Source: Dendrobates tinctorius (taxonomy: Eukaryota). From it: a stretch of 64,000 nucleotides of DNA. Below are positions 35,269 to 60,432 of this stretch, in pieces (position 1 is the stretch's first letter; every line of letters begins with the position of its first letter). A program made the position numbers and the translations under genes. The notes under the pieces are model-generated. The model saw only the letters and a list, made by a program, of their open reading frames with translations. It was not told the DNA's origin and made no database searches. The stretch spans positions 6,510,001-6,574,000 of the forward strand of contig NW_027361850.1 of assembly GCF_039654945.1 (NCBI RefSeq), written 5' to 3'.

Positions 35269-37867
35269 ATCGCCTCAAACCTTTTCATTGCCAATGGACA
35301 TGTTGGATATTATTCAGTGAGGGGAATGACCTGGCAGTCTGGTTGTCAGAAAATAATACTTAAAATAGAATGTTGCAGGAGATGTGGTCTCCTCTGAAGT
35401 GCTGGTTTTCAAAAACTCGTGGTGTTGTTTTTGTTGTTACCCCCCCACCTCCTTTTCTTTCCTAATCTTTCACTTTCCACCCTAACATTAGTCTAATGTT
35501 TATGGAGGCCCTCAGCTCTCGCCGGACAAATAATGTCAGGATGATAAGGATCCAACACGTCTGATTTCATACTGCTGATCTTTTTGTTCTCTAAGGTATA
35601 AGCCACCGCCAGACATGTATGCCACCAGCTCTCTCATAGTGAACACAGAAGCACTCAGCAGTGCAAGCTCCTTTGTATGGTATAGTAGAGCAAGATAGAT
35701 ACCAGCAGAACACACGTTCAGCTGACAGCGATCTAAAATGTATGTTGTCTTATGTCCTGGTAGTTTCACATTCACGATGGTGCATAGATTATGTATTAAT
35801 CTTAGCAGCGCTGCATCCCTACCTATGATTGTGTGTTGTTAACTGTGAAATTGGCTTAAATAAAGAATTTATAAAGCAGTTTTGTTAAGGTTTTTGTTTT
35901 TTTTTGCAAAATATGCCATATGATATCCACTTTTCTTTACAAGCTAACTGTGCCCTAAATCTAAAAAAAATACTAAGTAACCAATGCCAATGAAAATAAG
36001 AAGCAGGTAAATATTAACCAAAGTTAGTTACATATAACTTTTATGTTCAATGTGTAATATATCAATAAATGCAGCATAAAACATGGGCCAGAATGATAAT
36101 GATTATATTTTTCTGCTCATGGGATTGGCATGGCGATTACATCAGATCTCATAGTGAAGATCCTCCCAACCTTGCTTGATTGAATACGTAAGTCCTTTTG
36201 CAGGATGATCCACCATGTCTCAAGAGACAATGTTTAGATAAAGTTTGCCCGACTGAAAGTAAAAGTTGTTAAAAAATGTGTCTGTATGCTATAGAGAGGA
36301 GTTGGAAATATATTCTTTTTTATTATGAGAATTGGCAATGGTAAGATCCTCTTCTTTTTATGTGGTAAGTTTGCGTACGGACGTGGTATTTAGGAGGACC
36401 TACGCCCAGTGAGAATCATATTGATTCTGTATCGATATTTTTATGATGTTCTTGTGAATGTATGGTCTGCTCACTAACCAGAAATTCTTGCATCACCTGT
36501 TATCCCAGTTTCACAACATGTAGCAATGTTTGAAGAGAGGTTTGGTGTCCATGACTTAAAAGTAAGGATTGTATGATAACTCTGTAATGTGTGACTCAAA
36601 GTAGCCAATAACTTGTCATTTGTAAGGCTTCAGAATGGACAAAATTGGTGACAACTGACTATTGGTTGGCAGTAGCATCGAGATCAGTGGCAGGATGCAA
36701 TGCTTGTTTGGGTTGATGAAGTTCAAGACCTGAAGCTGAGAATTAAGAGGTAATTAGCAGAAAATTTCAAACAGTGATTAAAGAAGAAGCACAAAGTAGA
36801 TTTCTTCACCAAAAGTATCAATGTAATCAGTATTTCAGCCATACTTTATATTACAAAATTGTGCTGAGGAGTTCAATTTAAATGTCAGATCTTACTACAG
36901 TGGCCGTGATCATTAAGACTAACGCGCACAACACTATCCTTAATGATCCTGGGCCTTTATGTCTAGTTCTTGCATGATTGTATGGATCACACAATTATGT
37001 GTCATAAGAATGTCTTTGTGGTTATTCCTATCTTTAGTGTGAAAATTACCATTGAAGGTGGGAGGAAATGGGCTTTTAAAATCTTGATATAAGTAAAGAA
37101 GGCAAAGAGAAATACCAGAAGTCAAGTAGAAAATAAAACACATAGAAAATGACTCAGCATCCGCAGATTCAGGTAGCAAGAACTTCATATTTATTGGAAA
37201 ACACTTAAAAAAGAGTAAAACTAAAATATCAAATGTATAGGAGACACCAGAGTCCTGTACGAGTTCGAAATGTCATGATTAAGAGTTCTGTACAGGTCAC
37301 ATGTCCAAAATTACTTATACTGCACTGTATGTGTCACCGTTATTTGATAACTTCTATGTCATTGGTAGTTTGATTGTGTGTTCACATTTATGAACGTCAC
37401 TCCGCTATATGTTGGACTGTAGGATAAGGCTGTGACAGATTGAGAAAAGAAACCTCAGCACCCATGTATCTTCACATAAACTCTTCTTTATTTTATCAAG
37501 TAGCAGATACAGAGGATGCATCTTCACCCATCCCCCACACCTTTTATAACAACTATGACTGGCTGGCAGCCATCTTGGCTGTCTCTCCTATACACAGAAG
37601 TGCCTATTCAGCCGAGCTCCACCGTGCTGTCTATAAGAGCGCTGTAGCGATACACAGCAACAACTTGTCTCCAGGAGGCGATACAATCAGCAATCTGAAA
37701 TAGGACATGCCTGATCGATATTTCCCCTGCAATAAATTGTCTGATGCCCCATATACATTAGACTGTCATTGAACCTGTCAATATCGTGGGGCTTTGCAAC
37801 ATTTGTCAAATGTGTATGGGGGCTTAAATGTACATGATATTTTGAATTTTCGCACTTGCTATGTTCT

Positions 37868-39170
37868 TGTGGCGCCCCTGAGGCTCAGTCGCCACAGAGG
37901 TACTGCACCTTCTCCTAAGGTGTGGTGCCCCACCATCCAGGTAAGTTGGAGGCTCCTGACCACGCTCCAACACACGCACCCCACACAATAGAGTAGTTCA
38001 GCATAACCATATTGCGGCTCCTTGCTTAGAGAGTAGCAGAGCACCTTTGGTGGTTCCCTGCTTGGAGCACTAACGTGCTGGGAGGCGGGTGGAGTTTACG
38101 ATACATAAAAGAGCGGGATGGTTTAGGATTACAGGTCAGTCTGACAGGAGGTCAGTCGGAGGGAGGAAGTCACTCAGAGAGGAGTGAGGAAAGGAGATCC
38201 CTGGAAGAACGGATGGAGGAAGGAGTGCTGCAGCTGCCTCAGTGACCTGAGCCAGCTGGCACGGGAAAGGAAAGGAAAGAAGGAGAAAGACGTAGAACTG
38301 AAACCTGAGCTTCCATAGAGGGAAAAGACAAGTACGGAACGTACGCGTGAAAGGGAACACAGAGGACGTGGGTTAGAGGAAGAACCCTACCTAGAAGTTC
38401 TAAGCGCAAGGCCGGGGACCGGTCCCCGAGGTTGTATGAACACTAATGGTTCTGCAGCAGACACCGGTGGAGTAGTGGGCTGTAAATGCACTACTCCCAT
38501 TTAAGACTTGGGGCACAACAGCAACACGGATAGAGAGCCGGGAGTAGAAAGTCCCCGAAGCAGGCTACAGCTGTCTGCCATACAAGTAGAGTCCTTGGTA
38601 ACATCTGTCAGGAGGAACTCCAGTGTAACTCAGTACTAGGAGATCTTCACACTTAAAGGCGCTATAGAGGAGACGTTCAGAAAAGGCACATAAGTTGGCG
38701 GAGTGTGAAAGGGAGCTTTCCATCTTGCCTGGAGGTTGACTGAGTCCCTGACCCGGAGAACACGGTACAGAAGTGGGCATTACAGACTTTGAGTAAAGCT
38801 TTGGAACTACATGCCCTGGTGTCCTCCATTCCTTCCTGCGTCCGTCCGCCTGGCACTGCTACATCCCCTGCGCCGGACACTACACCATCTAAGTGTCCCC
38901 ACATCTACACTGCCCTGGGACAATGGCCCTGCCTGTGGAGGGCTATACTATCACTGCTGCACCACACCATCTGTCCCAGAGGATCTGTCTGCGGCGTTGG
39001 CTTAACACCTCCCTTGCCGAACACCACAGGTGGCGTCACGAACTATTCACCATTAATATATCGCCATTACTTGGGTGCCCAGGGCCACGGTCCGGGTCAC
39101 CGCTGCTGTGACACATCCCACTGATACCGGCCCGGTACCGAGTACCCCGCAGCCCTGGGAGGGCGACCCA
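37868..39170 (+). mobile_element. Solo LTR, family A, intact 1303 bp
   Basis: TGtggcgccc...gggcgaccCA with perfect TTCT TSD (37864-67 and 39171-74). Confidence 0.93.
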
Positions 39171-39901
39171 TTCTCTTCAGAATTAAATGGCCAAACAGCC
39201 AAAATTCTTCCTGTATTGTAAAAAAAATACAGAATTTGCAAGTGAGTCTTTAAATAGAGCCTCAACCAAATGTGTACATAGCTGCTGTGTGCAAGAATAA
39301 AATAAAAACAATACCACTAACAATAAATACTTTTGACTTCCAAATACAGATGCACCATATGTTTATGTACTGGTGAGGTAGCGGTAAAACTGTTTTTATC
39401 ATATGCTATTTCTGTGCATCTCATCGGTTCATTTGCCTTGGTAGCCTATGCCTAGCTGCTAATGAAACGGGGGCCAGGGCAGTAGTCGTGACTAGCGGTG
39501 ACAGCTCTGGCACACCCTGCCTCCTCGCCACATTAACACATTGCAGTTCACTCACTTGTGAGTCGGGGTCCTCTCCCTCCGGCCGGGGCTCCTTTTCTTT
39601 CAGCATCACACAATGATACTCAGCTCGCCCAGTTTAGTCACAGAAACAGCACAAGATTCATCGCAGAATATAACCATTCCGTTCCCTGTACTGTCCCTCA
39701 CTCCTCCAGGAATATTACATTTTCGTACTGCATCCACCGTTACCACAGCTTCCTGACTGGTCAGCCTAACCCGCTTCAGGAGTTCCCCGCCCACTTCCCT
39801 CTCTGAAGGCGAAGTTGAAGGATGGCTCTCCCAATCCTTTCTAGGCCGTAGGCCTCAGACATTAAGGATTGTTTCCACGAAGTTAGCTGCTACCATTCTA
39901 A

Positions 39902-40427
39902 AGGCCCCGTCACACTAAACGATACGACTTTGTCAGGATCGCTGGTGCCTCCCTACATGATCGCTGGTGAGCTGCCAAACAGGCAGCTTCACCAGCGATC
40001 AGGACCAGCAAGGACGCTGGTATCTAAGGTAAATATCGGGTAACTCAGCACGCGCGGCACTTAGTTACCCGTCTGTTTACCTTCGATACCAGCGTCCTAG
40101 CGCGAGCACGCAGGTATCTAAGGTACACAGTGGGTAACTAAGTGACGCGCGCGCTTAGTTACCCGATATTTACCTTAGATACCAGCTCCCAGCATCTGCT
40201 TACAACGCTGGGAGCTCGCTGATCGTCGGTCTCCCGCTGCCACGAGGCGATGCGTGCTGGCCAGCAGGAGACCAATGATCAAAAAATGGCCCAGGACGAT
40301 CAAGCACGATCAGCGATACCCGGCCGGGGGGGCCAGTCGCTGATGTGTGTCACACACAGCGAGATCACTGGCGAGATCGCTGTTGCGTCACAAAATCAGC
40401 GATCTCGCTGTGTGTGTGACGGGGCCT
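39902..40427. mobile_element. PIF/Harbinger MITE
   Basis: TIR aggccccgtcacac/gtgtgacggggcct; taa and tta flanks; internal palindrome. Confidence 0.8.
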
Positions 40428-41989
40428 TTATGCTGTCCTGATATTCTTCCACGACCATGTGACTGTCAGCCTCCAGGCCCTGGGGACTGCTGGGCTGCTA
40501 GACTTAAAAATTCTCAGGCACAACTGCCCAGCCTTGACTCCCGGTTCTCCAAAACTAAAACTAACTCCAGGAAGCTCCCCAACTGCCCTTCCTTAGCCTC
40601 TCCTAGCTAGTCTAATCCTATTGGTCCAACTAATTCCCTATTCTATTCTACTGTGCTCCCTTTACTGGTCTAAATCCTACACTGTCCTTATATCTTCATA
40701 ACACATGTTTATAGGGACAATGCCATGCACATTGTAACAACATTAAAAGACATGTAGGATGTACTCCTTTTACCAGGAACATGGGCAAGAAGCGCGGGGC
40801 ATAAACTAGCCTCCATGCACCACTTACATACCTCCCTCCTAAAATATGGTCCTCCTCGACCATACAGTGCCGTACAACATAACTTTAAAATACAACACAC
40901 ATTTTTAAATTTCTTTTTAAACTTATTTAAAGGTAAGAAAAATTATTTTGCTCTACATAAAAGTCTGTTTTTTTTTGCGTCCACCTCTGACCTTTGGGGC
41001 CAGTACTACAAGTTCAATTGGCTCCGGTCCCTTTTGTTTCCAGGACCCGAGCACAGACACAGTTCGCATTAGAACTCACCACAGTCCCATCATATTGACC
41101 TGGTTCACTCATCAGGTCCTCCTGGCTTAAACTCCTCCTCCCTCCTGTGCACGGAGTACGGCACTTTAACGCATGTGTGCTGCTCTGTTGTAGGGCTAAA
41201 GTTCAGGTTACATATAACAAGCTAAAACACAATCCTTTGCAGCAGTCACATACAGTTAGGTCCATATATATTTAGACAGAGACAACATTTTTCTAATTTT
41301 GGTTCTAGACATTACCACAATGAATTTTAAACAAAACAATTCAGATGCAGTTGAAGTTAAGACTTTCAGCTTTCATTTGAGGGTATCCACATTAAAATTG
41401 GATGAAGGGTTTAGGAGTTTCAGCTCCTTAACATGCTTAACCCCTTCATGACCCAGCCTATTTTGACCTTAATGACCTGGCCATTTTTTGCAATTCTGAC
41501 CAGTGTCCCTTTATGAGGTAATAACTCAGGAACACTTCAATGGATCCTAGCGATTCTGAGACTGTTTTTTCGTGACATATTGGGCTTCATGTTAGTGGTA
41601 AATTTAGGTCGATAATTTTTGCGTTTATTTGTGAAAAAATCAGAAATTTGGTAAAAATTTAGAAAATTTCGCAATTTTCACATTTTGAATTTTTATTCTG
41701 TTAACTAACATTTCCCACATGTCTACTTCACATCAGTACAATTTTGGAAACAATTTTTTTTTTGTTAGGAAGTTATAAGGGTTAAAAGTTGACCAGCGAT
41801 TTCTCATTTTTACAACAAAATTTACAAAACCATTTTTTTAGGGACCACCTCACATTTGAAGTCACTTTGAGGGGTCTATATGGCAGAAAATACCCCAAAG
41901 TGACACCATTCTAAAAACTGCACCCCTCAAGCTACTCAAAACTACATTCTAGAAGATTATTAACCCTTCAGGTGTTTCGCAGGAACTAA

Positions 41990-44575
41990 AGCAACGAAAA
42001 AATGGACATTTTAATTTTTACAACAAAAATTTTCTTTTAGCATCAATTTTTTCATTTTCACATGGGCAACAGGATAAAATGGATCCTAAAATTTGTTTGG
42101 CAATTTCTCCTGAGTACACCGATACCTCATATGTGGTCATAAACCACTGTTTGGGCGCACGGCAGGGCTCAGAAGGGAAGGAGCGCCATTTGACTTTTGA
42201 ATGGAAAACATGCTGGAATATTTAGCGGACACCATGTCGCGTTTGGAGAACCCCTGTGTGCCTAATCATTGGAGCTCCCTCACAAGTGACCCCATTTTGG
42301 AAACTAGACCCCCCAAGGAATTTATCTACATGCATAGTGATCATTTTGAACCCCCAGGTGCTTCACAAATTGATCGGTAAAAAAAAAAAGTACTTTTTTT
42401 TCACAAAAATTTTCTTTTAGCCTAAGTTTTTTCATTTTCACATGGGCAACAGGATAAAATGGATCCTAAAATTTGTTGGGCAATTTCACCTGAATGCATC
42501 GATACCTCATATGTCGTCATAAACCACTGTTTGGTGGTCTGTAAGTGAAGGAGCGCTATTTGACTTTTTGAATGGAAAATTAGCTCCAATCGTTATCGGA
42601 CACCATGTCGCGTTTGGAGAGCCCCTGTGTGCCTAAACAGTGAAAACCCCCACAAGTGACCTCATTTTGGAAACTAGACCCCTTATGGATCTTACCTAGA
42701 TGTGTAGTGAGCACTTTGAACCTCCAGGTGCTTCACAGAAGTTTATAACGCAGAGCAGTGAAAATAAAAAATCATTTTTTTTCCTCAAAAATGATTTTTT
42801 AGAACGCTATTTTTAATTTTTGCAAGGGTAACAGGAGAAATTGAACCACAAAAGTTGTTGTGCCTTGTGTTCTGAGTACACCGATACCCCATATGTGGGG
42901 GGGAACCACTGTTTGGGCGCACGGCAGGGCTCAGAAGGGAAGGAGCGCCATTTGACTATTTTGAAATTAAAATTACCTCTAATCGTTAGCGGACACCATG
43001 TCGTGTTTGGAGAGCCCTGTGTGCCTAAACATTGGAGCTCCCCCACAAATAACCCCATTTTGGAAACTAGACCCCCTAAGGAACTTTTCTAGATGCATTG
43101 TGAGCACTTTGAACCCCCAAGTGCTTCACAAAAGTTTATAACGCAGTGTCGTGAAAATAAAAAATATTTTTTTTAACTCAAAAAATTATTTTTTAGTGCA
43201 CAAATTTTTATTTTCACAAGGGTACCAGGAGAAACTGGACCCCAAAAGTTGTTGTCCAGTTTGTCCTGAGTACGCTGGCACCTCATTTGTGGGTGGAGAC
43301 CATTGTTTGGGTGCACGTCGGGGCTCGGAAGGGAAGTAGTGACATTATGAAATGCTGACTTTGATGGAATGGTCTGCGGGCGTCATGTTACATTTGCAGA
43401 GCCCCTGATGTACCTAAACTGTGGAAACCCCCCACAAGTGACCCCATTTTGGAAACTAGACCCCCCAAGGAACTTATCTAGATGTATGGCGAGGACCTTG
43501 AACCCCCAAGTGCTTCACAGAAGTTTATAACGCAGAGCAGTGAAAATAAAAAAACATTTTTTTTCCTCAAAAAAAAATAAATTTTTTTTTAGCTCACAAT
43601 TTTTTTTTCACAAGGGTAACAGGATAAATTGGACCCCAAAAGTTCTTGTCCAGTTTGTCCTGAGTATGCTGATACCCCATATGTGGGTGGGGACCACTGT
43701 TTGGGCACACGTCGTGGCTCGGAAGGGAAGTAGTGGCATTATGAAATGCTGACTTTGATGGAATGGTCTGCGGGCGTCATGTTACATTTGAAGAGCCCTT
43801 GGTGTGCCTAAACTGTGGAACCCCCCCACAAGTGACCCCATTTTGGAAATTAGACCCCCAAAGGAACTTATCTAGATGTGTGGTGAGCACTTTGAACCCC
43901 CAAGTGCTTCACAGAAGTTTATAACGCAAAAAATGATTTTTTAGCTCGCAAATTTTTATTTTCCCAAGGGTAACAGGAGAAATTGGACCCCAAAAGTTGT
44001 CCAGTTTGTCCTGAGTACGCTGATACCCCATATTTGGGGAGGAACCATTGTTTGGGCGCACATAAGGGCTGAGAATGGAAGTAGTGACATTTTGAAATGC
44101 AGACTTTGATGGAAAGGTCTGCGGTCGTTGTTACGTTTGCAGAGCCCCTGATGTGCCTAAACAGTAGAAACCCCCACAAGTGACCCTATTTTGGAAACTA
44201 GACCTTCCAAGGAACTTAGCTAGATGTCTGGTGAGCACTTGGAACCCCCAAGTGCTTCACAGACGTTTATAACACAGAGACGTGAAAATAAAAAAATCAT
44301 TTCTTTTTTTCTTTTCCAAAAAAATAATTTTTTAGCCCCCAATTTTTTATTTTCCCATGGGTAACAGGAGAAATTAGACCACCAAAGTTGTTGTGCAATT
44401 TTTCCTGAGTACGCTGATACCCCATATGTTGGGGTAGACCACTGTTTGGGCACACGTCGGGGCTTGGAAAGGAGGGAGCACCGTTTGACTTTTTGAACAC
44501 AAAATTGGCTGGTATCAATGGTTGCACCATGTCGCGTTTAGAGACCCCCTGATGTGCCTAAACAGTGGAAACCCC
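41990..44575. repeat. Diverged tandem array of ~350-420-bp units inside the piggyBac-like element
   Basis: cacaagtgaccccattttggaaactagacc or close variants recur at about 42281, 42651, 43045, 43433, 43827 and 44175. Confidence 0.85.
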
Positions 44576-44580
44576 TCAAT

Positions 44581-45001
44581 TCTAACTCCAACCCTAACCC
44601 CAACACACCCCTAACCACAACCCTTACCCCAACACATCCCTAACCCTAATCCCAACCCTAACCATAACCCTAACCCCAACACACCCCTAACCCTATCCGT
44701 AACCCTAATTCCAACACTAACCCTAATTCCAACCCTAACCCCAATTCCAACCCTAACCCTAATACCAACCCTAAACCTAGTTCTAACCCTAATTCCAACC
44801 CTAACCCTAATTCCACTCTAACCCTAATTCCAACCCTAACCCTAATTCCAACCCTAATCCTAACCCTCTTTCCAACCCTAACCCTCTTTCCAACCCTAAC
44901 CCTAACCCTCTTTCCAACCCTAACCCTCTTTCCAACCCTAACCCTAACCCTCTTTCCAACCCTAACCCTAACTCTCTTTCCAACCCTAACTCTAACCCTA
45001 A
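44581..45001. repeat. Degenerate telomere-like (CCCTAA)n array
   Basis: ccctaa hexamers interspersed with ttccaa and ccctct variants. Confidence 0.9.
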
Positions 45002-47555
45002 TGGAAAAATAAAAATAAAAATAATTTCTTTATTTTATTAGTTGATCCTGCCTAAGGGGGTGATAAACGGGGGGTTTATTTACTTTTCATTTTTATTTTG
45101 ATCACTGTGAGAGTTTATCACAGTGATCAAAATAGAATGAAGGGAAATTGCAGCCGGCGGGCGGACTGCGCATGCGCCCGCCATCTTCAAGATGGCGGCG
45201 CCCATGGTCCGGGACCGCGGGATACCGGGAGGCGGAGAGGGACATCGGAGGTACCGGGGGGGTCGGAAGGTGGGGGGAGCACAGAGAAGGGGAGCTGATG
45301 ATGATGGCGGCGGCACATTGCCGCCGTCAGTCGGTATCGGGGGCCGATCGGCCCCGTGAGCCGGTGGGGGTGGGGTCGGATCACAGTCTCCAGCCATGTC
45401 CGATGCTACTGCAGCATCGGCCATGGCTGGATTGTAATATTTCATCAATTTTCATTGATGAAATATTACTATCGCTCTGATTGGCTGTTTCACTTTTAAC
45501 AGCCAATCAGAGCGATCGTAGCCACGTGGGGGTGAAGCCACGCCCCCTGTGGTGAAGAACAAAGCCCCCTGTATCTGCGGGTCGGGTGACCTTTCAGTGA
45601 CCTAGGTCACCCAACCCGCAGGGGGGCTTTAAAGTCATGACGCCACATAGGCGTCATGGGTCGTTCTGGCACGACTTTTCATGACGCCTACGTGGCGTCA
45701 AAGGTCGTGAAGGGGTTAACATGTGCCACCCTGTTTTTAAAGGGATCGAAAGTAATTGGACAGATTAAATAATTGTAAATATAATGTTCATTTCTAGTAC
45801 TTGGTTGAAAACCCTTTGTTGGCAATGACTGCCTGAAGTCTTGAACTCATGGACATCACCAGACGCTGCGTTTCCTCCTTTTTGATGCTCTGCCAGGTCT
45901 TCACTGCGTTGGTTTTCAGTTGCTGTTTTTTTGTGGGCCTTTCTGTCTGAAGTTTAGTCTTTAACAAGTGAAATGCATGCTCAATTGGGTTGAGATCAGG
46001 TGACTGACTTGGCCTGGGTTGCTTTGGCTTTATGTTTTGGGTCATTGTCCATCTGTAGTATGAAACGACGACCAATCAGTTTGGCTGCATTTGGCTGGAT
46101 CTGAGCACACAGTATGGCTCTGAATACCTCAGAATTCATTCGGCTGCTTCTGTCCTGTGTCACATCATCAATAAACACTAGAGACCCAGTGCCACTGGCA
46201 GCCATGCATGCCCAAGGCATCACACTGCCTCCGCCGTGTTTTACAGATGATGTGGTATGCTTTGGATCATGAGCTGTACCACACCTTCGCCATACTTTTC
46301 TCTTTCCATCATTCTGGTAGAGGTTGATCTTGGATTCATCTGTCCAAAGAATGTTCTTCCAGAACTGTGCTGGCTTTTTTAGATATTTTTTAGCAAAGCC
46401 CAGTCTAGCCTTTTTATTCTTGATGCTTATGAGTGGCTTGCACCGTGCAGTGAACCCTCTGTATTTACTTTCATGCAGTGTTCTCTTTATGGTAGATTTG
46501 GATATTGATACGCCTACCTCCTGGAGAGTGTTGTTCACTTGGTTGGCTGTTGTGAAGGGGTTTCTCTTCACCATGGAGATAATTCTGTGATCATCCACCA
46601 CTGTTGTCTTCCGTGAGCGCCCAGGTCTTTTTGCATTGATGAGTTCACCAGTGCTTGCTTTCTTTCTTTCTTTCTTTCTTTCTCAGGATGTACCAAACTG
46701 TAGATTTTGCCACTCCTAATGTTGTAGCAATTTCTCGGATGGGTTTTTTCTGTTTTTGCAGCTTAAGGATGGCTTGTTTCACCTGCATGGAGAGCTCCTT
46801 TGACCGCATGTTTCCTTCACAGCAAAACCTTCCAAATGCAAGCACCACACCTCAAATCAACTCCAGGCCTTTTATCTGCTTAATTGAGAATGGCATAACG
46901 AAGGGATTGTGCACACCTGTCCATGAAATAGCTTTGGAGTCAATTGTCCAATGACTTTTGGTCCCTTTAAAAACAGGGTGGCACATGTTAAGGAGCTGAA
47001 ACTCCTAAACCCTTCATCCAATTTTAATGTGGATACCCTCAAATGAAATCTGAAAGTCTGAATTTCAACTGCATCTGAATTGTTTTGCTTAAAATTCATT
47101 GTGGTAATGTCTAGAACCAAAATTAGAAAAATGTTGTCTCTGTCCAAATATATATGGATCTAACTATATAGTCCGCTTTCAGTCCAAGGGCACATAACCC
47201 CCAGGAGCAGAATCCTGCAATCCAGGAGGAGAAGCGCAATGTGCACAACAGAACTATGGGAGGGGAAACCAATGTTCAACATAAATGTTCAACCATGGCC
47301 CCACAGACCACAATATACTGCACCCTGCACCAGACTCCAGTGATGCAGGGCTCCTGCCCACAGGGACGTGGAACAGTCCCATCAATTCCTTTCTTACAGG
47401 TGTAACAGGCACAACTTTCCTTTGGAGATGTCAATTTTAGTCACTGTCCCAGTGGTACACATCCCGTGCCGCTCTATCCCGCATCAGACTCCGTGTCCGT
47501 GCTCCAATGGGTGACGGTAATTCCAACACCACTGCAGACCCCACATTCCTCCGCG

Positions 47556-48452
47556 TCAATGACAGGGGACAGGTAGAGCTTGGCTGTTCACTGGGCAACT
47601 TATATGAGGATGACTGCACCATTCCTGGCGCTCGTGCAGTTCCAGGTCGTCCTCAGGGAGTAACAGGGCAACTGCTACAGTAAAATACCCCCGGTGTTCA
47701 TCCTCTTTAAGAAAGGTGACCCGATCTCCTTCCCTCAGGGGCTTCTGAAATTTGACTGAACTGGAGTTCATGTATACCTTGTAGTCACTGTGGGCCTCGC
47801 GGATAAAGCCATACCCGCGAGACGGGTTGGTGTACACCAACAACCAGCTGGTCCGCCGTCCAGCCATTGCACCCCCTCCTGGTCGGTGCAGCTCTGCCCA
47901 GATCTCTCTTCTTTTTCCCTTCAATCACCCCGCTATCCATGCTGCCTGCTCAGGGGATGGGAAGGGACCATTTTGGGGTGATGACCCAAGGGACGGAACA
48001 TCTATGAACACGGGCCTGCGCTCTGGAGTTTGGGAGCAAGTTCCACCTACCACCTGCGCTTCGTCCTGTTCCCGCTACTCTGGCATCTCGGCAGCGATCG
48101 CTCCATGACCGTCAGACTCCACCAGCACAGCCGCCATGCCCTCCTGCTCAGACTCCTCTGTTTCTGCCTCCTCTGACTCAGGCTCCTCCGGGGCAGCCTC
48201 TTCCGATTCACATTCTTCCAGATCGCCGATCTCCTCCGGTACGTGATGTCGTTCCGGGTTCGGTAGCTGCCAGTACTGCTCTCCAGCGTGCAACGGGAAC
48301 CTGTTGAGACGATACTCATCCCTGACATCAGATGCTCCCCTCAACCTTCCGTGCCGGGTCCTTTCCTCCGCCTGCTGCCACTTCCACTCTATGCGTCCGA
48401 CACCGCCGCTCATCGGATGCAGGAATGTTCCATCGGTGCAGGTTCCATGCAC
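47556..48452 (-). pseudogene. Decayed ORF of about 300 codons: acidic N-terminal region plus cold-shock (OB-fold) domain
   Basis: ORFs 48075-48452 and 47556-47924 share one frame, broken by stops at 48075-77 and 47925-27. The C-terminal part reads NPSRGYGFIRE...KVYMNSSSV...KPLREGDRVTF...G...V. Confidence 0.7.
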
Positions 48453-49731
48453 ATTAGAACGACATTACAAGACATGTAGGATGTACCCGTTTTACCAGGA
48501 ATGTGGGCAAGAAGCGCTGGGCATAATCTGGTCTCCATGCACCCCTTCCCTTACACTAACATTCATCTTGCCATTCACCAATTCCACCATAAGCATCCAT
48601 GCTTTCTGACAACTTCGTCTTGTGATTGTTAGCCCCGTTTCACAAATCAGTTGTGGAATCCATGAGAAGGATACATTTGGATATTTTATCATGCTAATAA
48701 ATTTCTACAAAAGAAGGTGTAAGTAGCCTGCTCACTCATACGCTGCTTGTTGCGGCTTGAATCCGTCCACAAAGGATGCATCCAGCAATAGTAGCAATCG
48801 TACATTACTAAAGCTGTACTACTCCTAGTGCAAACAAACAAGACAGCCTTAAAGGGGTTGTTCACTACTTACTCAACCACATCTTAAAAGGGAATCTGTC
48901 AGCAGGTTTGTTAAGGACATACTGGGAGTTGTAGGTTAATGCAATAGAAAGGTATATGGGGCTGACCTGAAATTACAATTGATGTATCATGTACTGATGG
49001 TAGTTCAGGTGATGTATTCATGTACTGGTGTGTGTGCGCATGTCTGCTTGTCTGTGCATGCCTGTGTGTCTGTACATGTCAGCGTATATGTCTGTGTATC
49101 TGGAATTATATGTATTTTTGTAAGATGCGTGTATGTAACAGTGCATTGTGGTATGTAAAAACATTCATATGCTTGGGGCACATTTACTAAATCTGTAAGG
49201 GCTCTTTCACATGTGTTAGGGAATTACAATTGTCTTTCCAAGTTTAGGAACAGATAAGTGATATTTTCTAACTTTGATATAACTGTCACCTTAGGGATGA
49301 GCTTTTATTTAGCAGATTCAGGAGCTGAACCTGCACCATACCAGGCAGATGTCGGATGCGATACACAGCCGGCATCTGCCTGTAACAGCAGTGATCAGAG
49401 CTCATCTTGATTGTTGCTGTGCTGTATTTAAATTCCCTTGTCAATCACTGACAGCAGTATTTAGCGGGGACTCCCGCTGACGTCACTGAGGCTGCAGGGA
49501 GTCCCCGCAATTTAATACAATGAATTAACCCCTTAAATGAACCCCTACAACTCCAAACTTTTACCCACAAGCCCTCATATAATTAATAGTGATAGACATA
49601 AAAAAAACATGAAATGAAATGGTTAACTATATGTAAACCATGTGTCATTTCATGTTGGGCAGGAGAATGTTATACAAAAGCCGGCAAATGTTTCAGGGGC
49701 TATTCTGCAATGAAGAACTGTATGAATTAGA

Positions 49732-51700
49732 AATGTTAACCTTTTTTCTTTATAACAATTTTGGTTTTTGCAACAGTTATTTCAGTTTCATATATCTAAT
49801 AACTGATGGACTCAGTTATATTTCTGGATTCAAATGAGGTTTATTGTACTAACAGAAAATGTGCAATCTGCATTTAAACAAAATTTGACTGGTGCAAAAG
49901 CATGGGCACCTCAACATAAAAGTGACATTAATATTTCGTAGATCCTCCTCTTGCAAAAATTACAGCCTCTAGTCGCTTCCTGTAGCTATTAATGAGTTTC
50001 TGGATCATGGATGAAGGTATTTGTGACCATTCCTGTTTACAAAACAATTCCAGTTCAGTTAAGTTTGATGGTCGCCGAGCATGGACAGCCCGCTTCAAAT
50101 CATCCCACAGATGTTCAATGATATTCAGGTCTGGGAACTGGGATGGCCATTCCAGAACATTGTAATTGATCCTCTGCATGAATGCCTGAGTAGATTTGGA
50201 GCGGTGTTTTGGATCATTGTCTTGCTGAAATATCCATCCCCTGCGTAACTTCAACTTCGTCACTGATTCTTGCACATTATGGTCAAGAATCTGCTGATAC
50301 TTGCCTTCTATAGACTTAATAGCTGTCTACAAATATCTAAAGGGCTGTCACATTGTAGAAGGATCAACTTTATTCTCATTTGCACAAGGAAAGACTAGAA
50401 GCAATGGGATGAAACTGAATGGGAGGAGACACAGATTAGATATTAGAAAAAACTTTTTGACAGTTAGAGTGATCAATGAGTGGAACAGGCTGCCACGAGA
50501 AGTGGTGAGTTCTCCTTCAATGGAAGTCTTCAAACAGAGGCTGGACAGACATCTGACTGGGATGATTTAGCGAATCCTGCTTTGAGCAGGGGGTTGGACC
50601 AGATGGCCCAGGAGGTCCCTTCCAACTCTACGATTCTATGATTCTATGATACTCAGTTGAATCCATGCGACCCTCAACTTTAACAAGATTCCCGATGCTG
50701 GCATTGGCCACACAGCCCCAAAGCATGATGGAACCTCCACCAAATTTTACTGTGGGTAGCAAGTGTTTTTCTTGGAATGCTGTGTTTTTTAGCCTCCATG
50801 CATAACGCCTTTTTGTATGACCAAACAACTCAATCTTTGTTTCATCAGTCCACAGGACCTTCTTCCAAAATGTAACTAGATTGTCCAAATGTGCTTTTGC
50901 ATACCTCAGGCGACTCTGTTTGTGGCGTGCTTGCAGAAACGGCTTCTTTCGCATCACTCTCCCATACAGCTTCTCCTTGTGCAAAGTGCGCTGTATTGTT
51001 GACCGATGCACAGTGACACCATCTGCAGCAAGATGATGCTGCAGGTCTTTGGAGGTGGTCTGTGGATTGTCCTTGACTGTTCTCACCATTCTTCTTCTCT
51101 GCCTTTCTGATATTTTTCTTGGCCTGCCATGTCTGGGCTTAACAAGAACTGTACCTGTGTTCTTCCATTTCCTTACTATGTTCCTCACAGTGGAAACTGA
51201 CTGGTTAAATCTCTGAGACAACTTTTTGTATCCTTCCCCTGAAAAGCTATGTTGAATAATCTTTGTTTTCAGATCATTTGAGAGTTGTTTTGAGGAGCCC
51301 ATGATGCCACTCTTCATAGGAGAATCAAATAGGAGAACTACTTGCAAGTGGCCACCTTAAATACCTTTTCTCATGATTTGATACACCTGGCTATGAAGTT
51401 CAAAGCTCAATGAGGTTACAAAACCAATTTAGTGCTTCAGGAAGTCAGTAAAAAGTAGTTAGGAGTGTTCAAATCAAGAAAATGATAAGGGTGCCCATAC
51501 TTTTGCACCGGTCAAATTTTGTTTAAATGCAGATTGCACATTTTCTGTTAGTACAATAAACCTCATTTGAATCCAGAAATATAACTGAGTCCATCAGTTA
51601 TTAGATATATGAAACTGAAATAGCTGTTGCAAAAACCAAAATTGTTATAAAGAAAAAAGGTTAACATTAATAAAGGTGCCCAAACTTTAACATATGACTG
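49732..51700 (-). mobile_element. Tc1 transposon, left tip truncated, transposase split by a CR1 insertion
   Basis: ORFs 50628-51347 and 49928-50275 (WTDE, QQDNDPKH, PDLNIIEH). Inverted repeats of about 190 bp; right end catatgactg-TA. Confidence 0.92.
50302..50648 (+). mobile_element. 5'-truncated CR1 LINE 3' end
   Basis: DLIAVYKYLKG...RKNFLTVRVINEWNRLPREVV; 3' UTR ggtcccttccaact and (attctatg)n tail; tgatact duplicated. Confidence 0.92.
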
Positions 51701-52925: not shown

Positions 52926-53365
52926 TGCACCTTTCTGTGATATATACCAGTGTTGGAACGGGAGCAGCAGGGGTTAGGCAAAGGTGATTTATGCCTTGTT
53001 TATGTGAGCGTCTTCCCTGGCACTGGTAAGTCACTCTAGCTTTCAGTTGCTCCCACGGTCTCCTGCTGCCTCTGTCCCGGTCTGCTGACTCATCGTCCTG
53101 GGAATTCCCCGCCCCTTTATACAGGTCCCTTCCCCAGCCCATCTGTCTGTCACAACGATCCGTCCCCAACCTCTGTCCTCCGGGAATAGTTTCCCCCGGA
53201 ACCTAGATGACAGCTCCCTTGGTTCCGGCCCGGACACTCGACTGGGGCATTCATCCTACACTCCTCCGCCCTGTATACTCACCAGTCCTCGGGCGAGGGT
53301 TTTCATAGACTCAGGTTAGTTTTTTGGGACGACAGTCCTTGTCGCCATATGAACTGGTCCTGTTC

Positions 53366-53748
53366 ATAACGTGCAGACGTACTTTTTGGCCCTGCGGATT
53401 TTTCCGCGCAGAAAGGAAGAAAGCTGCAGGTCAAATGACCTGCATTTTTCCTGCGGATTTTTTCCATTTTTCATGCGGTTTTCTTGTGGTTTTTGTGCGG
53501 TTTTCCACTGCGGTTTTCCCCCTGCGGATTTGGTGACAGGGGAGATGGAAAACCGCACAAAAGAAGTAACATGCTGCGGATTTTGTACTGCAGGAATACC
53601 GCGCGGAAAAATCTGCAGCGTCTGCACAGCGGTTTTTTTTTTCATTGATTTTAAGGCTACTGTACATCACAATGCGGATATGCAACGTTTCTGCGCGGTA
53701 AAATCCGCTGCGGATCCGCTGCAAATCTGCATCGTGTGCACACAGCCT
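53366..53748. mobile_element. Harbinger-like MITE in the Gypsy 3' region
   Basis: tgcgg-rich palindromic body ending gtgtgcacacagcc. Confidence 0.6.
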
Positions 53749-53989
53749 CAGGGGGTTTGCCAGCTGCTGACCGCTCGGAGCATCAAAGCTCGGGTGTAGT
53801 GAAGTCTTCTGGGGTGGTGGAGGGTGGTCGAATAGTTGGTTCTGGTGGGTTTCCCGGGTCTACTGTAGTGCCACTACTGGGGTGACCCATAGATGCGACG
53901 GGGAAGTCCTCTTCGTCATCTTGGTCCCAGACCATGGGCGGGGGGGTTGGGGACCTGAGGGGTCGGTTCGAGCCGCGGGAGATCAGTAG

Positions 53990-56900
53990 ACGTACAAGGC
54001 CGTAACATGTTACGTGCACAACCCGAGTGAGAGGCGCGTTGTTTCCTTCAGACTGTATGTCGTACACAGACCTGTCGGGGCTTATCCGACGCAACACTCG
54101 GTATGGGTTCACCTCCCACCGTGGTTCTAACTTGTTTTGGGGACGTTGATCAAGTACGAGTACCCGATCCCCAGTCTGAAAGTCAATGGGTGGGGGCAGT
54201 GCTCCCCCCGGGTGTTTTAGGTCCTGGAGCTTTGTATGGACGATTCGGTGGAGGGTCTGCAGCCGGTGCCGGTGGTTTCGGACCCACGAGGATACCCCGG
54301 TCCAGGGTTTGGGTTCCTCCGGGTTCAATTCCACTTCCGTAATCCCCTTGCCTTCCCGTTCGAACAGCAATGAGTAGGGGGTGTAACCAGTCACTTGATG
54401 CACTCGATTGTTATATACCCACACCAGCTCAGGGACATATTCAGGCCAGTGGGTCTTGCGGTCGCTCTCCAGGGTGTGCAGCATTTGGATTAGTGTACGA
54501 CTGAATCGCTCGCAGGCTCCGTTTCCCTGCGGGTGGTACGGCGTAGTCCGAGATTTATTGATACCGTAAAGATGATGTAGCTCTTCCATGACTTTTCCTA
54601 GGAAGCACGCTCCTTGATCCGAACATATTCGTTGTGGACAGCCGTACACTTGAATAAAGTTCTTGCAAATTGCATAAGCGGCCGACTCCGCTGTTTGGTC
54701 TCGGGTGGGGGTGACCACGGCGAACTTGGTGAAATGGTCCACAATAACGAGACAATGTTCATACTCCTGATAGGCCGGACCTATGGTCAGAGAGTCCACC
54801 GTAAGAAGCTCCAGAGGGGCTGATGTTACAATAGTCTGCACCGGGGCTCGTTGCACGGGGGGTTTAGCGAGCTCGCACGGGCGGCAGGTTCGGCAAACTT
54901 CTTCTACAGCAGCGTGCAAGCGTGGGTGGTACACTATCTGCTGCAACCATTGTAAAGTCTTTTGAGCACCAAAATCGGCCCCCTTCTCATGGGCTTCTCG
55001 GGCCAGTTGGTTGAGGTGGGCTACGGGCATGATCACCTGCCATATCGCAGCTGACGTGGTTCGTGACATGGCTTTTCGATATAAAAGTCCTTTTTTGATG
55101 ATTAGCTTTTCCCACTGGCGCAACATCAGCAACATATCTTGGGTCAAAGTCTTTCTCTGTGAGCCCGTGGGCAATTTAGCGGTGGCCACCCATCGGCGTA
55201 GGAGTCCGACTTCTGTATCTTCCTGTTGCTGCTGAATCCATTTGTCGCGGGGTTGTTCCAGTATCCCTCCTAGGAGTCCCGGATGAGGCGCTTCTTGCGT
55301 GTTGACTGTAAGCGCGGCGGTGGTGAGGGTGAACGGCGTCTCTTCTGCTTCTAATTCGTCATCTCGATTTCTCCCTGGGGTGGTGTGTCAGATTCTGGAG
55401 AGCGCGTCGGCGTGCACATTTTCAGCTCCCCGTTTGTAGATGATTTTATAATTGAATTTGGCCATCCGAGCCACCCACCACTGTTCTAGGGCCCCCAGTT
55501 TGGCATTCTCCAAGTGGGCTAATGGGTTGTTGTCGGTCTGCACTACTACTTTGGAGCTGCCAGGTACTCTGCGAATCGCTCCGTCATTGCCCACACTACC
55601 GCGAGGAGCTCGAGCTTAAAGGAGCTGTAATTGTCCTGGTTGTGTTCTGAGTTGTGCAGCGACTGGCTACCGTAGGAGATCACTTTCTCCCGGCCGTCCT
55701 GCACCTGTGACAACACAGCTCCTAGTCCCTGGAGGCTCCCGTCGGTATGCAGGATGAATGGTTGCGAGAAATTCGCATATGCCAATACCGGGGCGTCCGA
55801 GAGGGCAGCTTTGAGATCTCGAAATGCATCTTCTTGCGGTTGCTGCCACTGGATCTTCCGTCCAAACGCCCCGGCAAGAGCCCCCTTCAGCAGGTCTTGC
55901 AGGGCTCGGGCTCGGCGTGCAAAATTCTTCACGAACCAACAGTAGTAGCCGGCTAACCCCAAGAAGGCCCGCACGTCTTTCACCGTCTCGGGGGTAGGCC
56001 ACCCCAGGACGGCAGCGACCTTTTCCAGGGATGGTCGGACGCCCTCCGCCTAGATGGTATTCCCCAGGTATTCGATCTGGGTGCGGAACATGTTGCATTT
56101 CTGGGGCTTTACCTTTACTCCGTACTTCTGCAGCCGGCCGAGCACCTGCCCCAACCGCCTCAGGTGGTCCTCGAGCGTGGCGGAATAGATGATAATATCG
56201 TCCAGGTATATCAACGTGGCTTCAAAGTTGAGGTCTCCCAGACACCACTCCATCAACTGCTGAAAGGTTCCTGGGGCGTTGGCCAGCCCAAACGGCATCC
56301 GATTGAACTCGAACAGTCCCATGGGAAGGATAAATGCCGTCTTGGCTCTGTCTTCCTCCGACATCGGCACCTTCCAGTACCCACTAGCCAGGTCTAGAGT
56401 TGAAAAGTACTTCGCATTCCCCAAGGCAGACAGAGACTCTTCTATGCGGGGCAGTGGATACGAATCCTTGATGGTGCAGGCGTTCAACTTCCGATAATCC
56501 ACGCAAAAACGCAGAGTGACATCTTTTTTCCAAACCAGGACAATAGGGGCCGCCCAAGGGCTCTGGCTTTCTCGTATGACCCCCTTCCGGAGCATTTGGG
56601 CTAATAGAGTTTTCACTTCCTGGTATGGCTGCGGTGGTATTTGCCTATATCGCTCCCGGATGGGGGCCGCTCCTGCCGTGGGGATCCCATGCGTGATGGC
56701 TGTGGTACATCCGAAGTCATCCTTGTGGCTGGCGAAGACACTGTAAAATTGTCCAAGAAGTGTCTCTACCTGGAGAAGCTGGACTGGCGCTAGGTCGGAA
56801 AGTTCGGCCCGCATTCTCTCCAGGATGGCTCGACCTTTCTCTTGGGCCGAGGATGCGGCAGTCTGTTGGGTCCGTACCGTTACTGCCAAGGGATCTTCGG

Positions 56901-57700
56901 GTTGCACCCTCAACTGGACCGCGGGGTCCGGCAGCATCTCCTCCAATGGCCTTACTAGTTTGGCCATTTCGGCCCAGGGCTTCAGGGCGATATCTTGATC
57001 TTCCAGGTTGACACAACGCACCAAGACAGTCCCTTCCCGCACTGTGGCCAGAGAGCGGGCCACCAGGAAGCCAGGGTGCAGGCGCTCCAAGTAACATGGT
57101 TCCACCTGCACCTCCACGCCCACCAGTGGCATCGGGGCGCGGATCGGCAGAGCCACCACCGTCTGCCCTGCAGGAAGCACGAGCGGGGGGGGCCGCTGGC
57201 GCGATGACCTTTCCCAGTGCCTCATCCTCCTGACACTCCTGGAGCACTCGCGCCTCCCGCACCAACCGCTGGAAGACCTGCCCCTGGGCCATGCGAGAAC
57301 CCCACTGACTTAGGGTCTCCTGTGTGGAATCGTTGAGGAGTAGATTGCCGAACTCCCGCAGTATGTTCATGCCCAAGATGATCGGATGACGGTCGTTAGT
57401 CTCTCCTTGGGTTAGGACCACTCCCCGGCGGCCAAGGGATTTACCACACAATGTCATCTGGAGCCACACCATTCCGGCGACAGGTACCGGCAGTTGGTTT
57501 GCGGCCACTAGTTGCATCATGGGCCCCCACTGGGGCCTTGCCGCTTCCGGGAAATGCTGCCGGAAGTAAGCTGCCGGCATGGTCGTTACCTGCGACCCCG
57601 TATCCACTAGACACCGCACAGCACGACCCTCGACTTCGGCCCATATTATTGGGCACCTAGCGACCAGTTCTTCGGGACTTCCACCACCCCTTGTTGTGGC
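53990..57700 (-). pseudogene. pol: Gypsy pol (protease, RT, RNase H, integrase) with stops and frameshifts
   Basis: LVDTGSQVT, SPWAAPIVLV, RFCVDYRKLN, YLDDIIIY, TDGS..GLGAVLSQ, YSSFKLELLA, TDNNPL, VDHFTKF, SDQG, YHPQGNGACER. Confidence 0.93.
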
Positions 57701-57749
57701 TTCCGGCTCCTTGTGGCGTCCCCCATGCCCGGAGCCCTCTAGTTTAATG

Positions 57750-58620
57750 TTCGCCGGGGTGGGTATTTCCCACGTCGCGGACACTCCCGTGCGAAGTGGC
57801 CCAGTTCTCCACACTCATAACACCGGGGCGGTGAGGCTCAGCCACTCCGGGTATTTCGAGGCCCCCAGGGCCCGGAATTGTAGTCAGGTCGGCAGGGCAC
57901 GGGCTCCATTCTCTTCTTCACTTCAGCCAGCTCGCCCGGGATACTCTTCAGTTCTTGTCTCATTTCCTCAATCCATTGAGGTTCTTCGACAACGCTTACG
58001 GAAAACTCCATGCCTTCCCCACAGGAGCCGTCATCCCCTGCTCTTGCTCTCGTACCTGGGCCTGACTCCCCACTTCAGAGAAGGCTATACGTGGGTTCAC
58101 TCGGACCTGTTCCCACAATGCCTGCTTGATTAGCGGGTCTCGGAGTCCAGTCACAAGCAGGTCACGCAGGGTAATGTCGATGGTCCCTACCCCTATTCAG
58201 TCCTTCCTTTCTATGGTGGTGTACAGCTCCTGGAGGGCGTTCATATACTGGGTGATGGTCTCCCCCTCCCCCTGCATCCGTCTGAATAACCGGGTTCTCA
58301 ACTCCCCCACGTCTGTTGGATCCCCATGGGTCTCTTCCAGGATCTGCAAGACCCTGGCGAAGGTGTTGCGACGTCCCGGGGGTCTCAACATTACCGACTT
58401 CTGGGCTTACCCATCTAGCGCCATAAGGGCCACCTCAGCCTCCAAATTGGGGGTCATGGGGTGCATGCGGAAAAGGCCCCGCATACGTTCTGTCTAGCTC
58501 CACAATAGTGTATCAGAGCCAGAAAACCGGGGCAAGTTGCTTAGCATAGCCCCCAGGGAGATGCTGGTGCGGGGGCCCCCATCAGCAGCAGCGCCCGCAG
58601 CCCCACTCTGATCAGGCGCA
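57750..58620 (-). pseudogene. gag: Gypsy gag, decayed
   Basis: NLPRFSG, LFRMHP and MHR-like FRRMQGEGETITQYMNALQEL. Confidence 0.7.
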
Positions 58621-58644
58621 CCACCGTCTGCGCTCAGAGACTGC

Positions 58645-58662
58645 ATCCTGCGAACTACTCCA
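58645..58662 (-). promoter_or_regulatory. tRNA-Ser primer binding site
   Basis: Reverse strand ...accaCA-tt-tggagtagttcgcaggat versus Ser(AGA) PBS TGGCGTAGTCGGCAGGAT. Confidence 0.8.
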
Positions 58663-59628
58663 AATGTGGTACTTGCAGGTACCCAGGATGCAGTGACGAG
58701 TCGCGAAACGATTCGGTGCTTTCTATAATAACGTTTATAGGACTAGAGGGAACTTTCCTCAGTCACGGCCTGATCAAGCAAAAGGGGTAACAAGGGTTGC
58801 CCTCGCAGGGGCTCTATACAATCAAACACAAACAGGGTAGAACACGACTACGTCCGGCAATAGCCGGTCACTATAGGGCCGCGGTATGGACGACTACGGG
58901 TCCTTAATTATATAGTCAACTTAGCCGTCCAGACGTCCCTCGCCGTTCGGGATGGTGGTCTTTCGGCGTGGCAGTCGCTGGGCCCAGTTGCTGAGGCGTT
59001 GACCAATTCTTCACAGCGCTTCGGCGCTCTGATGACACGGGAGCCCCACAGGCCCCGGTGGAGTCCTTGGACGGATGGGCCGCAGCCCCTGGACTGGGGC
59101 AAGGGGCAGCGATGTGCGGTGGCGAAGGGCAGGCCACCTGCGCAGCTAACGGCTGCGGCGGAAGATCCGCAGCAAGCAGAGGCTCAGCTCCTGCTGCTGA
59201 CCGGAGGGAGACAGTGGTGGCCGCCGATGGCACTGTACTTGCCGTGGCCACTGGTGAGAGCAGGGCCGCTGCGGGTGGTGGGGAACAGGCCGCAGCCACG
59301 GGCTGGAGCGAGGCGGCAGCGGCCGCGGGCGACCGCAGGTAAGCCGCAGCCACGGGCTGAGGTGAGGCAGCAGCGGCCGCGGGTTGAACTGGGGCCGCAG
59401 TGGCCGCGGGCTGGAGCGGGGCAGCAAGTCTCGGATGATTGTCTTGGCACCTTCCCTCTGGAGTCCTCAGTGAGCGTCTTCCCTGGCACTGGTAAGTTGC
59501 TCTAGCATTCAGTCGCTCCCACGGTCTCCTGCTGTCTCTGTCCCGGTCTGCTGACTCATCGTCCCAGCAATTCCCCACCTCGTTATACTGGTCCCTCCCC
59601 CAGCCCATCTGTCCGTCACAACGGTCTG

Positions 59629-60432
59629 TGTTGTGAGTTCATTTTCCCCTTCACCATTGAAGTCTGATGAACTCCCTCTTCTGGTGAAGGAAGGTAGTGA
59701 GGCTGATTACCAAGCACCTGAGCAGGATGATGATGACTGGGTGACTGGAATTGCTGACTGGATATAAGGCAGCCGACGCCCTTCTGCCTTGCTGGTGATT
59801 TCTCAGAGGGATTCTAGGAGACCAGTCTGATTCCTGCTCCTCAAAAGCTAAGTTTTCTGCTCTGCTTTTTGCATTTGTGTTTTGGTTTTGTTTTGCCTTG
59901 TTTTTTTGGATTTCTGCCATTCCCTGCTGGGGTGAGCTTAATTCCTTTTTGCTCTGTCTTCAGAAAATACCTGAGTACTGATATACTGTAGTCTTTTTGA
60001 AGCCTAGCGTCTTCAGGGCTTTTTTCCCTATCAGTCTGTTGGCTCTTGTTTTGATAGGGTTTTGGCGGATTGCAGACAGCAGCTTTTCTATCCTGTCCTA
60101 TTTAGTTAGCTTGGGCCCCATCATTTGCTCAGCCTATCTTTCTATCTGTGTGAGTGTTTTTTCATCTTGCTTCACCGTCATTATATGTTGGGGGCTGCCT
60201 ATTGCTTTGGGGTCTGCTCTGGGGCAGTTTAGATTTCCCTTTCTGTCTTTAGGCTATTTAGTTCTCCGGCTGTGATCGAGGGGTCTAGGGCACCGTAGGA
60301 ACCCCCCACGGCTACTGCTAGTTGTTGTTGATAGGTTCAGGGGTCTGCAATCCGATAGCTGCCAACTTCTATGGTTTTCTGGACTTAGCTAGTATTTCTG
60401 TTTTTGCCTCCTACTGTGACTCATTCATAACA
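59629..60432. mobile_element. Solo LTR, family B, inserted in the Gypsy 5' LTR
   Basis: TGttgtgagt...cataaCA with ggtctg duplicated (59623-28 and 60433-38). Confidence 0.9.

Follow-up and report, generated by a model that had tools for sequence, protein, structure and literature searches.

The poison frog Dendrobates tinctorius carries LTR retrotransposons whose only gene encodes a cold-shock domain (CSD) protein. These elements are dependents, paired with gag-pol Gypsy helpers that have no CSD of their own: this pairing is the main point missed by the first-pass annotation of the locus. The window, a stretch of 64,000 nucleotides of contig NW_027361850.1, contains one such element on its minus strand, in all likelihood a non-autonomous LTR retrotransposon copy, now decayed, that has the CSD as its sole gene.

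The element in the window and its relatives

The element is bounded by the terminal bases TG at 48555 and CA at 39463 and by a CTAA target-site duplication (39459-39462 on the left, 48556-48559 on the right), just as first annotated, and no gag or pol was found between its ends. Read on the minus strand, it begins with a TG-initiated stub of the 5′ LTR (48445-48555). Over 103 bp this stub has 87% identity with the beginning of the 3′ LTR; as pairs of LTRs in this family mostly lie at 82-92% identity, the window copy is old. We compared it with 29 other copies of the family. The first ~116 bp of its 5′ LTR are left, after which the sequence jumps to internal position 4354 of copy L119; relative to L119 it is ~1.1 kb short, the rest of the 5′ LTR, the primer site and the start of the ORF being gone. 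The ORF lies close to the terminus because of this deletion, and elsewhere it sits between two LTRs of ~840 bp. The earlier suggestion that it is encoded inside the LTR, like sag of MMTV, is thus abandoned: the ORF is internal, and what is left of the 5′ LTR is joined to internal sequence.

The ORF, truncated at its 5′ end, spans 48464-47556 on the minus strand. As annotated, it is one frame of 303 codons broken by two internal stops, and it returns the peptide originally quoted. Its upstream part (48078-48464) is of low complexity and acidic, with 20% Glu, in line with the Glu-rich N-terminal part described at first. A conserved segment follows (47880-47969), predicted to form a helix from the alignment and from the model of a relative, L040; here the window copy is locally out of register. 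The CSD itself (47667-47858) has an intact RNP1, GYGFI, an RNP2-like VYMN and a short loop of 12 residues. The first internal stop is found in one of the 19 other covering copies and the second falls in a short stretch where the window copy is out of register with the others, while the terminal stop is common to 15 of 24 covering copies. The in-frame ATG columns of the other copies lie inside the window copy's deleted stretch or border it.

Downstream, non-coding internal DNA (47167-47555, minus strand) is colinear with other copies up to a Tc1/mariner insertion (41250-47169), later than the element, foreign to it and absent from other copies. The insertion has inverted repeats of 186 nt (96% complementary), a TA duplication and transposase pieces at 45794-46682, and is itself interrupted by tandem-repeat DNA. 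The remaining internal region (40829-41256, minus strand) ends in a polypurine run directly before the 3′ LTR, present in the window copy and in other copies. The 3′ LTR (39463-40828, minus strand) is a TG...CA unit of ~840 bp with a later insertion of ~530 bp at 39900-40428. The two insertions inflate the window copy to a span of 9.1 kb, against ~3.4-4.2 kb for related copies; the ends of the unit annotated at 39463-48555 stand, together with its target-site duplication, but not its length as that of a native element.

The family is large, and it is, as the first-pass annotation had proposed, one of LTR elements with their own CSD protein. A search of the 6.36-Gb genome with the window CSD gave 5046 first-look candidates, and all 150 that were scored reached E ≤ 2e-15. 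The Pfam CSD model gave 5472, again with 150 of 150 scored above cut-off; the 30 of these matches that we examined belong mostly to a second CSD family, plus three exons that we take to be those of CSDE1. At least six groups of CSD elements occur in the genome: old A, to which the window copy belongs, young A, D, B, B2 and C. They have a common layout of LTR, tRNA-Ser primer site, one ORF, polypurine tract and LTR, measure 3.3-5 kb and make a target duplication of 4 bp. The first of the two primer sites shows complementarity with the 3′ terminus of a tRNA-Ser(AGA) present in the genome; the second presumably corresponds to tRNA-Ser(CGA).

We assessed 71 CSD loci with 10-15 kb of context each; two (L198, L199) have weak CSD scores, and L196 (not a CSD element), L203 (no CSD), five Y-box-like relics and L052 were excluded. 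A primer-site-like motif lies within 3 kb upstream in 55 of the 71, against 1 of 106 for the reversed-motif control, and in 52 of these 55 the ORF follows at ~0.9-1.7 kb. A pair of flanking LTRs was found at 44 of the 71 loci, one pair of which (L112, 73%) probably joins two adjacent elements; gag or pol lies inside none of the 44, which answers the question whether copies enclose gag-pol. An autonomous Ty3/Gypsy element (Metaviridae) was accordingly rejected, gag and PR-RT-RH-IN being absent from the CSD elements though present in the helpers, as was a processed pseudogene of a host CSD gene, ruled out by the multicopy state, the LTR frame and the selected shared changes described below.

CSD-only elements have inserted recently. 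LTR pairs of young A are 95.5-100% identical, with some copies at 98-100%, and the 4-bp duplication is present in five of five young CSD copies examined as well as in the window. Contigs of four sequencing runs, of unrecorded type, cover the element in pieces.

Related and unrelated sequences lie nearby and elsewhere. In the window, 37867-39170 and ~15200-18310 are solo or partial LTRs of CSD family B, with 89.6% and 82% identity to the CSD-type B LTR and 78-80% to the helper-type LTR over its 3′ part. ERV-like gag/pol pieces, named by eye, occupy 11368-11994, 16017-16883 and 18205-18843, split by a B-type LTR. A Tc1 element (49727-51673) has 184-nt inverted repeats and a 242-aa transposase piece, and an L1-like ORF2 lies in pieces at 61205-63754. 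Outside the window, L129 and L135 (L203) form a further family with primer site A and a Cys-rich N-terminal region like that of family A; in L203, one 10-kb stretch of this family, a CSD was not found.

The cargo protein, its constraint and its origin

The proposed homology to cold-shock domains is borne out. The window ORF matches Pfam CSD (PF00313) at E 8.7e-5 with 22.8 bits, below the curated cut-off of 27. For the profile, PDB and Pfam checks we used an alignment of 18 natural stop-free cores: 17 of these 18 relatives match the Pfam model at E ≤ 0.1, and the top matches of the alignment in a PDB sequence search are exclusively cold-shock and Y-box proteins. The predicted model of the L040 core, a close relative, consists of a helix (residues 9-33) and a five-strand barrel (pLDDT 68.5); its best structural match is CspA (TM 0.86 on target, rmsd 1.3), with YB-1 at rank 4. 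The aromatic residues of RNP1 and RNP2 are preserved in TE-type CSDs, while other residues mostly stand in place of the β1 Trp and the RNP2 His that Y-box and Csp rows commonly have. From the fold and the kept aromatics, the domain is likely to bind nucleic acid; with Trp and His of the usual binding face mostly replaced, its specificity has probably changed and binding may be weak.

The rest of the protein is less familiar. Old A and young A have in common a Cys-rich N-terminal motif, at the tail of which the window ORF starts; this region has no Pfam or PDB match, its predicted model is uninformative (pLDDT 43) and an Atlas search with the N-terminal part gave no match. The same search with family C returned generic CSD clusters at 0.89. 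A basic cluster (at least 5 K/R in 7 residues) occurs in four of seven long family-B frames and in none of seven long young-A frames. The cargo ORF has no capsid, PNMA or zinc-knuckle match and no likeness to the helper Gags, the best pairwise E-values being 0.05 and 0.48.

The cargo ORF is kept under purifying selection as strong as that on helper Gag. Single-base codon variants were classed in each alignment column as private or as shared by at least three copies, with a rough-count dN/dS estimator and many copies picked by protein likeness. Over the helix and CSD of old A (50 copies), dN/dS is 0.23 for shared changes and 1.09 for private ones (p 5e-12), the shared changes comprising 65 N and 109 S with no stops; with CpG columns excluded the values are 0.15 and 1.08 (p 7e-14). 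The acidic part gives 0.43 for shared changes, or 0.29 without CpG. With CpG excluded, the helix and CSD give 0.09 shared against 0.93 private in family B (46 rows) and 0.04 against 0.43 in young A (26 rows); helper Gag, taken as a control, gives 0.09 and 0.12. N-terminal and middle parts lie at 0.28-0.52. The few B loci that were picked by primer site alone agree, with shared values of 0.32 and 0.17 (p 0.35 and 0.03).

Outside the frame this constraint disappears. Other frames of old A and the DNA after its ORF give 0.7-2.3, the non-coding part at 47167-47555 gives 0.7-1.0 for shared changes in all frames and, across families with CpG excluded, other frames reach at least 1.45 and 3′ non-coding DNA 0.7-1.5. 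Constrained shared changes next to neutral private ones are the pattern expected if only copies with a working protein left descendants, each copy decaying after insertion. A dN/dS below 1, named at the outset as the thing to look for, is thus what the helix and CSD display: 0.04-0.23 for shared changes, with private ones near neutral.

A profile search of 1.84 billion representative proteins returned one strong match, an uncharacterized RefSeq protein of D. tinctorius (E 8e-28), and weaker ones to three Logan proteins and to an uncharacterized protein from Anomaloglossus baeobatrachus, which represents a second family of poison frogs. Searches of the large protein set with the window ORF and with a mixed alignment, both for longer proteins, and with the family C ORF gave no TE-type relative, and are weak in that they missed the existing protein P0001; the mixed alignment found one CSD protein of 651 aa from a metagenome-type source. 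P0006 and P0009, uncharacterized sea-urchin proteins with 3-4 CSDs and acidic linkers, were matched by the family A profile through their domain repeats.

We built a tree from 81 rows and 67 columns, without a Lin28 row and with three frameshifted relic rows dropped. All 47 TE-type rows, five database proteins included, fall in one clade of it (98/87), which points to a single old capture. The free tree places this clade among Csp-like rows and not beside Y-box proteins (92/85, unstarred), with a bias toward a bacterial placement because the Csp rows were chosen for likeness to the family A profile; despite this placement, a clade of TE and Y-box rows is not rejected (p-AU 0.35). The phylogeny originally proposed thus yields one TE clade and is compatible with a donor of Csp or of Y-box type.

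Loop length favours the latter. The β3-β4 loop after RNP2 has 18 residues in three of three host Y-box proteins, in seven of seven family D rows and in six of seven further TE-type rows (13 of 14 together), and 19 residues in all 14 rows of families B and C. It has 12 in 18 of 19 family A rows and 10-15 in 20 Csp-like rows; the window-family profile ranks bacterial Csp above YB-1. Judged from these sequences, the domain was probably captured once from a Y-box gene, and family A would have lost part of the loop afterwards.

Other CSD sequences may record separate events. L052 (G000:C214:3597233-3597439) is a CSD without introns that lacks a close copy (43% for the next best) and gives a gapless alignment with YB-1 (E 1e-13; the next class follows at 4e-6). 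It is situated directly downstream of a B-type LTR, with a stop just upstream of the domain, and might represent an old intermediate; we found no LTR frame belonging to it, so it may be a separate capture. L237, L239 and L241 (L253-L255) are three old intronless Y-box-like CSD relics that share ~70% identity in the region of the domain. In L255 an RT-like piece is found just upstream, and the relics are possibly a second, extinct capture.

Gypsy helpers and the proposed role of the cargo

Exact primer sites number 6088 and 4320 in the genome for the two types, with no hits for the controls. We inspected the first 30 by position for each type, a sample that includes a few near-duplicates: a CSD-type ORF follows 14 and 18 of them, gag follows 10 and 10, and 6 and 2 were left unassigned. 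Scaling 32 of 60, a proportion drawn from two contigs, to 10,408 sites suggests ~5,500 CSD elements with an exact primer site. No large family without an ORF is present among these 60 loci.

Our gag-pol set consists of ten gag-type elements examined along their whole length, of which nine have RT-RH-IN and one is truncated, and of the window's own Gypsy. The latter (53000-59640, minus strand) is a broken gag-pol element of the helper type with the primer site of the window family and no CSD, its RT ~82% identical to that of L185. A CSD is found in 0 of these 11 elements, which agrees with the first-pass statement that it is not a standard Gypsy gene. Helper Gag keeps its own zinc knuckle, and helper LTR pairs are 99.4-99.8% identical, so these copies are very young. 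Over their last 280-390 nt, on the R/U5 side, the LTRs of family B have 77-86% identity with those of helpers. For the window's family A, we found no helper whose LTRs are homologous; what family A and the helpers have in common is the primer site and the terminal bases. The exact 24-nt LTR-end pattern of the window family has 4 sites in the genome, none of them in a helper.

On the strength of the element layout, it is highly likely that the CSD elements are mobilised in trans by gag-pol Gypsy helpers. Our explanation, which we hold tentatively and at just under an even chance, is that helpers copy the element while the cargo protein binds the element's own RNA, aiding its survival or its entry into helper particles. 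In the simplest case an RNA coat would protect the transcript and hand it to helper Gag, the helix and the N-terminal motif serving as protein-contact parts. We favour, as the selection suggests, an advantage accruing chiefly to the RNA that encoded the protein: were the protein a public good, copies without the ORF could spread and selection would relax, and no large class of such copies is seen among the 60 primer-site loci. Less firmly, and by analogy with the part that host YB-1 plays for some retroviruses, the step concerned may be the coating, protection and delivery of RNA to helper Gag; a further study is reportedly linked with this role of YB-1 in retroviral RNA metabolism. YB-1 depletion reduces HIV virion output via viral RNA metabolism (PMC6040738).

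Four other explanations have to be weighed. The cargo might be a regulator in the manner of Tat or Rev, binding LTR DNA or nascent RNA and raising transcription or nuclear export of its own and helper transcripts. Y-box proteins also bind single-stranded DNA, activating the helpers on which it relies would be to a dependent element's advantage, and the selected acidic region, the Cys-rich motif common to old and young A, the basic cluster of four of the seven long B frames and the R/U5-side sequence common to helper and dependent B LTRs are compatible with such a factor. The basic cluster is nonetheless missing from the long frames of young A, the Cys motif matches nothing in Pfam or PDB, and family A LTRs have little in common with helper LTRs; moreover, a pure trans-activator invites cheaters without the ORF, which do not form a large class among the 60 primer-site loci. 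We consider this explanation unlikely.

An anti-silencing factor, shielding element RNA in the germ line from piRNA or other small-RNA pathways or soaking up their precursors, seems more doubtful still. CSD proteins such as Lin28 block small-RNA processing, and a clade of cargo proteins that is long-lived and diversifying, its flanks changing fast around a constrained, predicted RNA-binding fold, might be expected of such a role; recent Ty3 activity in frogs tracks genome size (PMC12822217). General suppression, however, would benefit all of a cell's elements and could hardly be maintained by selection acting on carriers only, and a zinc-knuckle partner like that of Lin28 was not detected.

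Slightly less probable again is a two-part system, in which the helpers cannot do without the CSD protein, be it a nucleocapsid-like chaperone or an accessory, and the two elements are segments of a single replicating whole. In each of the two primer-site lineages the CSD partners are at least as numerous as the helpers, the constraint on the CSD equals that on Gag, and both types were recently active, but such co-occurrence is equally expected of a parasite, and the nucleocapsid function is not missing because helper Gag retains its zinc knuckle. Finally, an origin of the elements by deletion from an autonomous one with the CSD as an extra gene, the selection signal being inherited from that ancestor, is very improbable: bird ERVs carry CSDs beside gag-pol (PMC12287698), L255 offers an RT-like neighbour and the gag-pol sample amounts to 11 elements, but none of the 11 has a CSD, the distance from primer site to ORF is nearly constant (52 of 55), selection is strongest among young dependent copies and six or more families have the same layout.

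The preferred explanation, RNA binding in cis by a helper-copied element, opens on a wider picture that is possible though rather doubtful. Poison frogs, and perhaps more amphibians, would harbour a satellite-like class of retrotransposons that discarded gag and pol, acquired a host Y-box CSD a single time long ago and used it for access to the particles of two Gypsy helper lineages; it would now equal or outnumber these helpers, might add to giant genomes and, in its strongest form, would make up a two-segment system with the helper.

Comparison with known systems

Dependent LTR elements are usually viewed as non-coding passengers or as gag remnants. Those described here encode a foreign, predicted RNA-binding protein under selection of Gag strength, in several families and with two helper lineages. 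They provide a test case for two questions: how the parasite of a retrotransposon contends for particles, and why retroelements repeatedly capture CSDs. They also bear on annotation: relatives are filed in RefSeq as uncharacterized host proteins, and a count of ORFs that relies on pol would overlook about half of the tRNA-Ser-primed elements.

MMTV sag is an extra gene in the LTR of an autonomous virus. The CSD element likewise has an extra gene on an LTR element, but here the ORF is internal and gag and pol are absent. As a protein, the cargo resembles Y-box proteins (YBX1/2/3) and CspA in the five-strand fold and in the aromatics of RNP1 and RNP2, and its long-loop families have the loop length of Y-box proteins. 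It differs from solved CSDs, with 23-32% identity and a mostly replaced Trp and His on the binding face, and from Y-box and CspA proteins in a new aromatic pair in the last strand, the preceding helix and unrelated flanks. Its ORF is intronless, whereas three host Y-box loci are split into exons.

The features found, namely LTRs, primer site, polypurine tract, target-site duplication, lack of gag-pol and a helper, are those of non-autonomous LTR retrotransposons, with LTR homology to a helper for family B only. TRIM, LARD and TR-GAG elements are mobilised in trans by helpers (PMC13570524, PMC10886601). The CSD elements are like them in having two LTRs, a primer site and a polypurine tract without pol, at a size from long TRIM to LARD. 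The same sources describe TRIMs and LARDs as non-coding, whereas CSD elements keep a selected ORF, and TR-GAGs as holding gag/protease remnants, whereas the CSD-element ORF is unlike helper Gag (PMC13570524, PMC10886601). We rejected assignment to TRIM or LARD, given an interior with an ORF under purifying selection, and to TR-GAG, the retained ORF not being gag and having no capsid, PNMA or zinc-knuckle match.

Our literature search, with Repbase, Dfam and subscription journals outside it, found no report of a non-autonomous LTR element with only a CSD, and none is described in the accessible portions of PMC12822217, PMC8498967 and PMC13583293. What is already known is CSD capture in birds, by 46 ERVs and several times, which its authors regard as possibly adaptive (PMC12287698). 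As in the frog, a host-type cold-shock domain has there come to lie inside an LTR retroelement (PMC12287698). The bird ERVs are retroviruses with RT, few in number and with strong Pfam scores (E about 1e-24 in the rows examined; PMC12287698). The frog elements differ from them in that the CSD is the only cargo, belongs to one old and diverged clade, is present in an estimated thousands of copies and is kept by purifying selection: what appears to be new here are dependent elements with nothing but a CSD.
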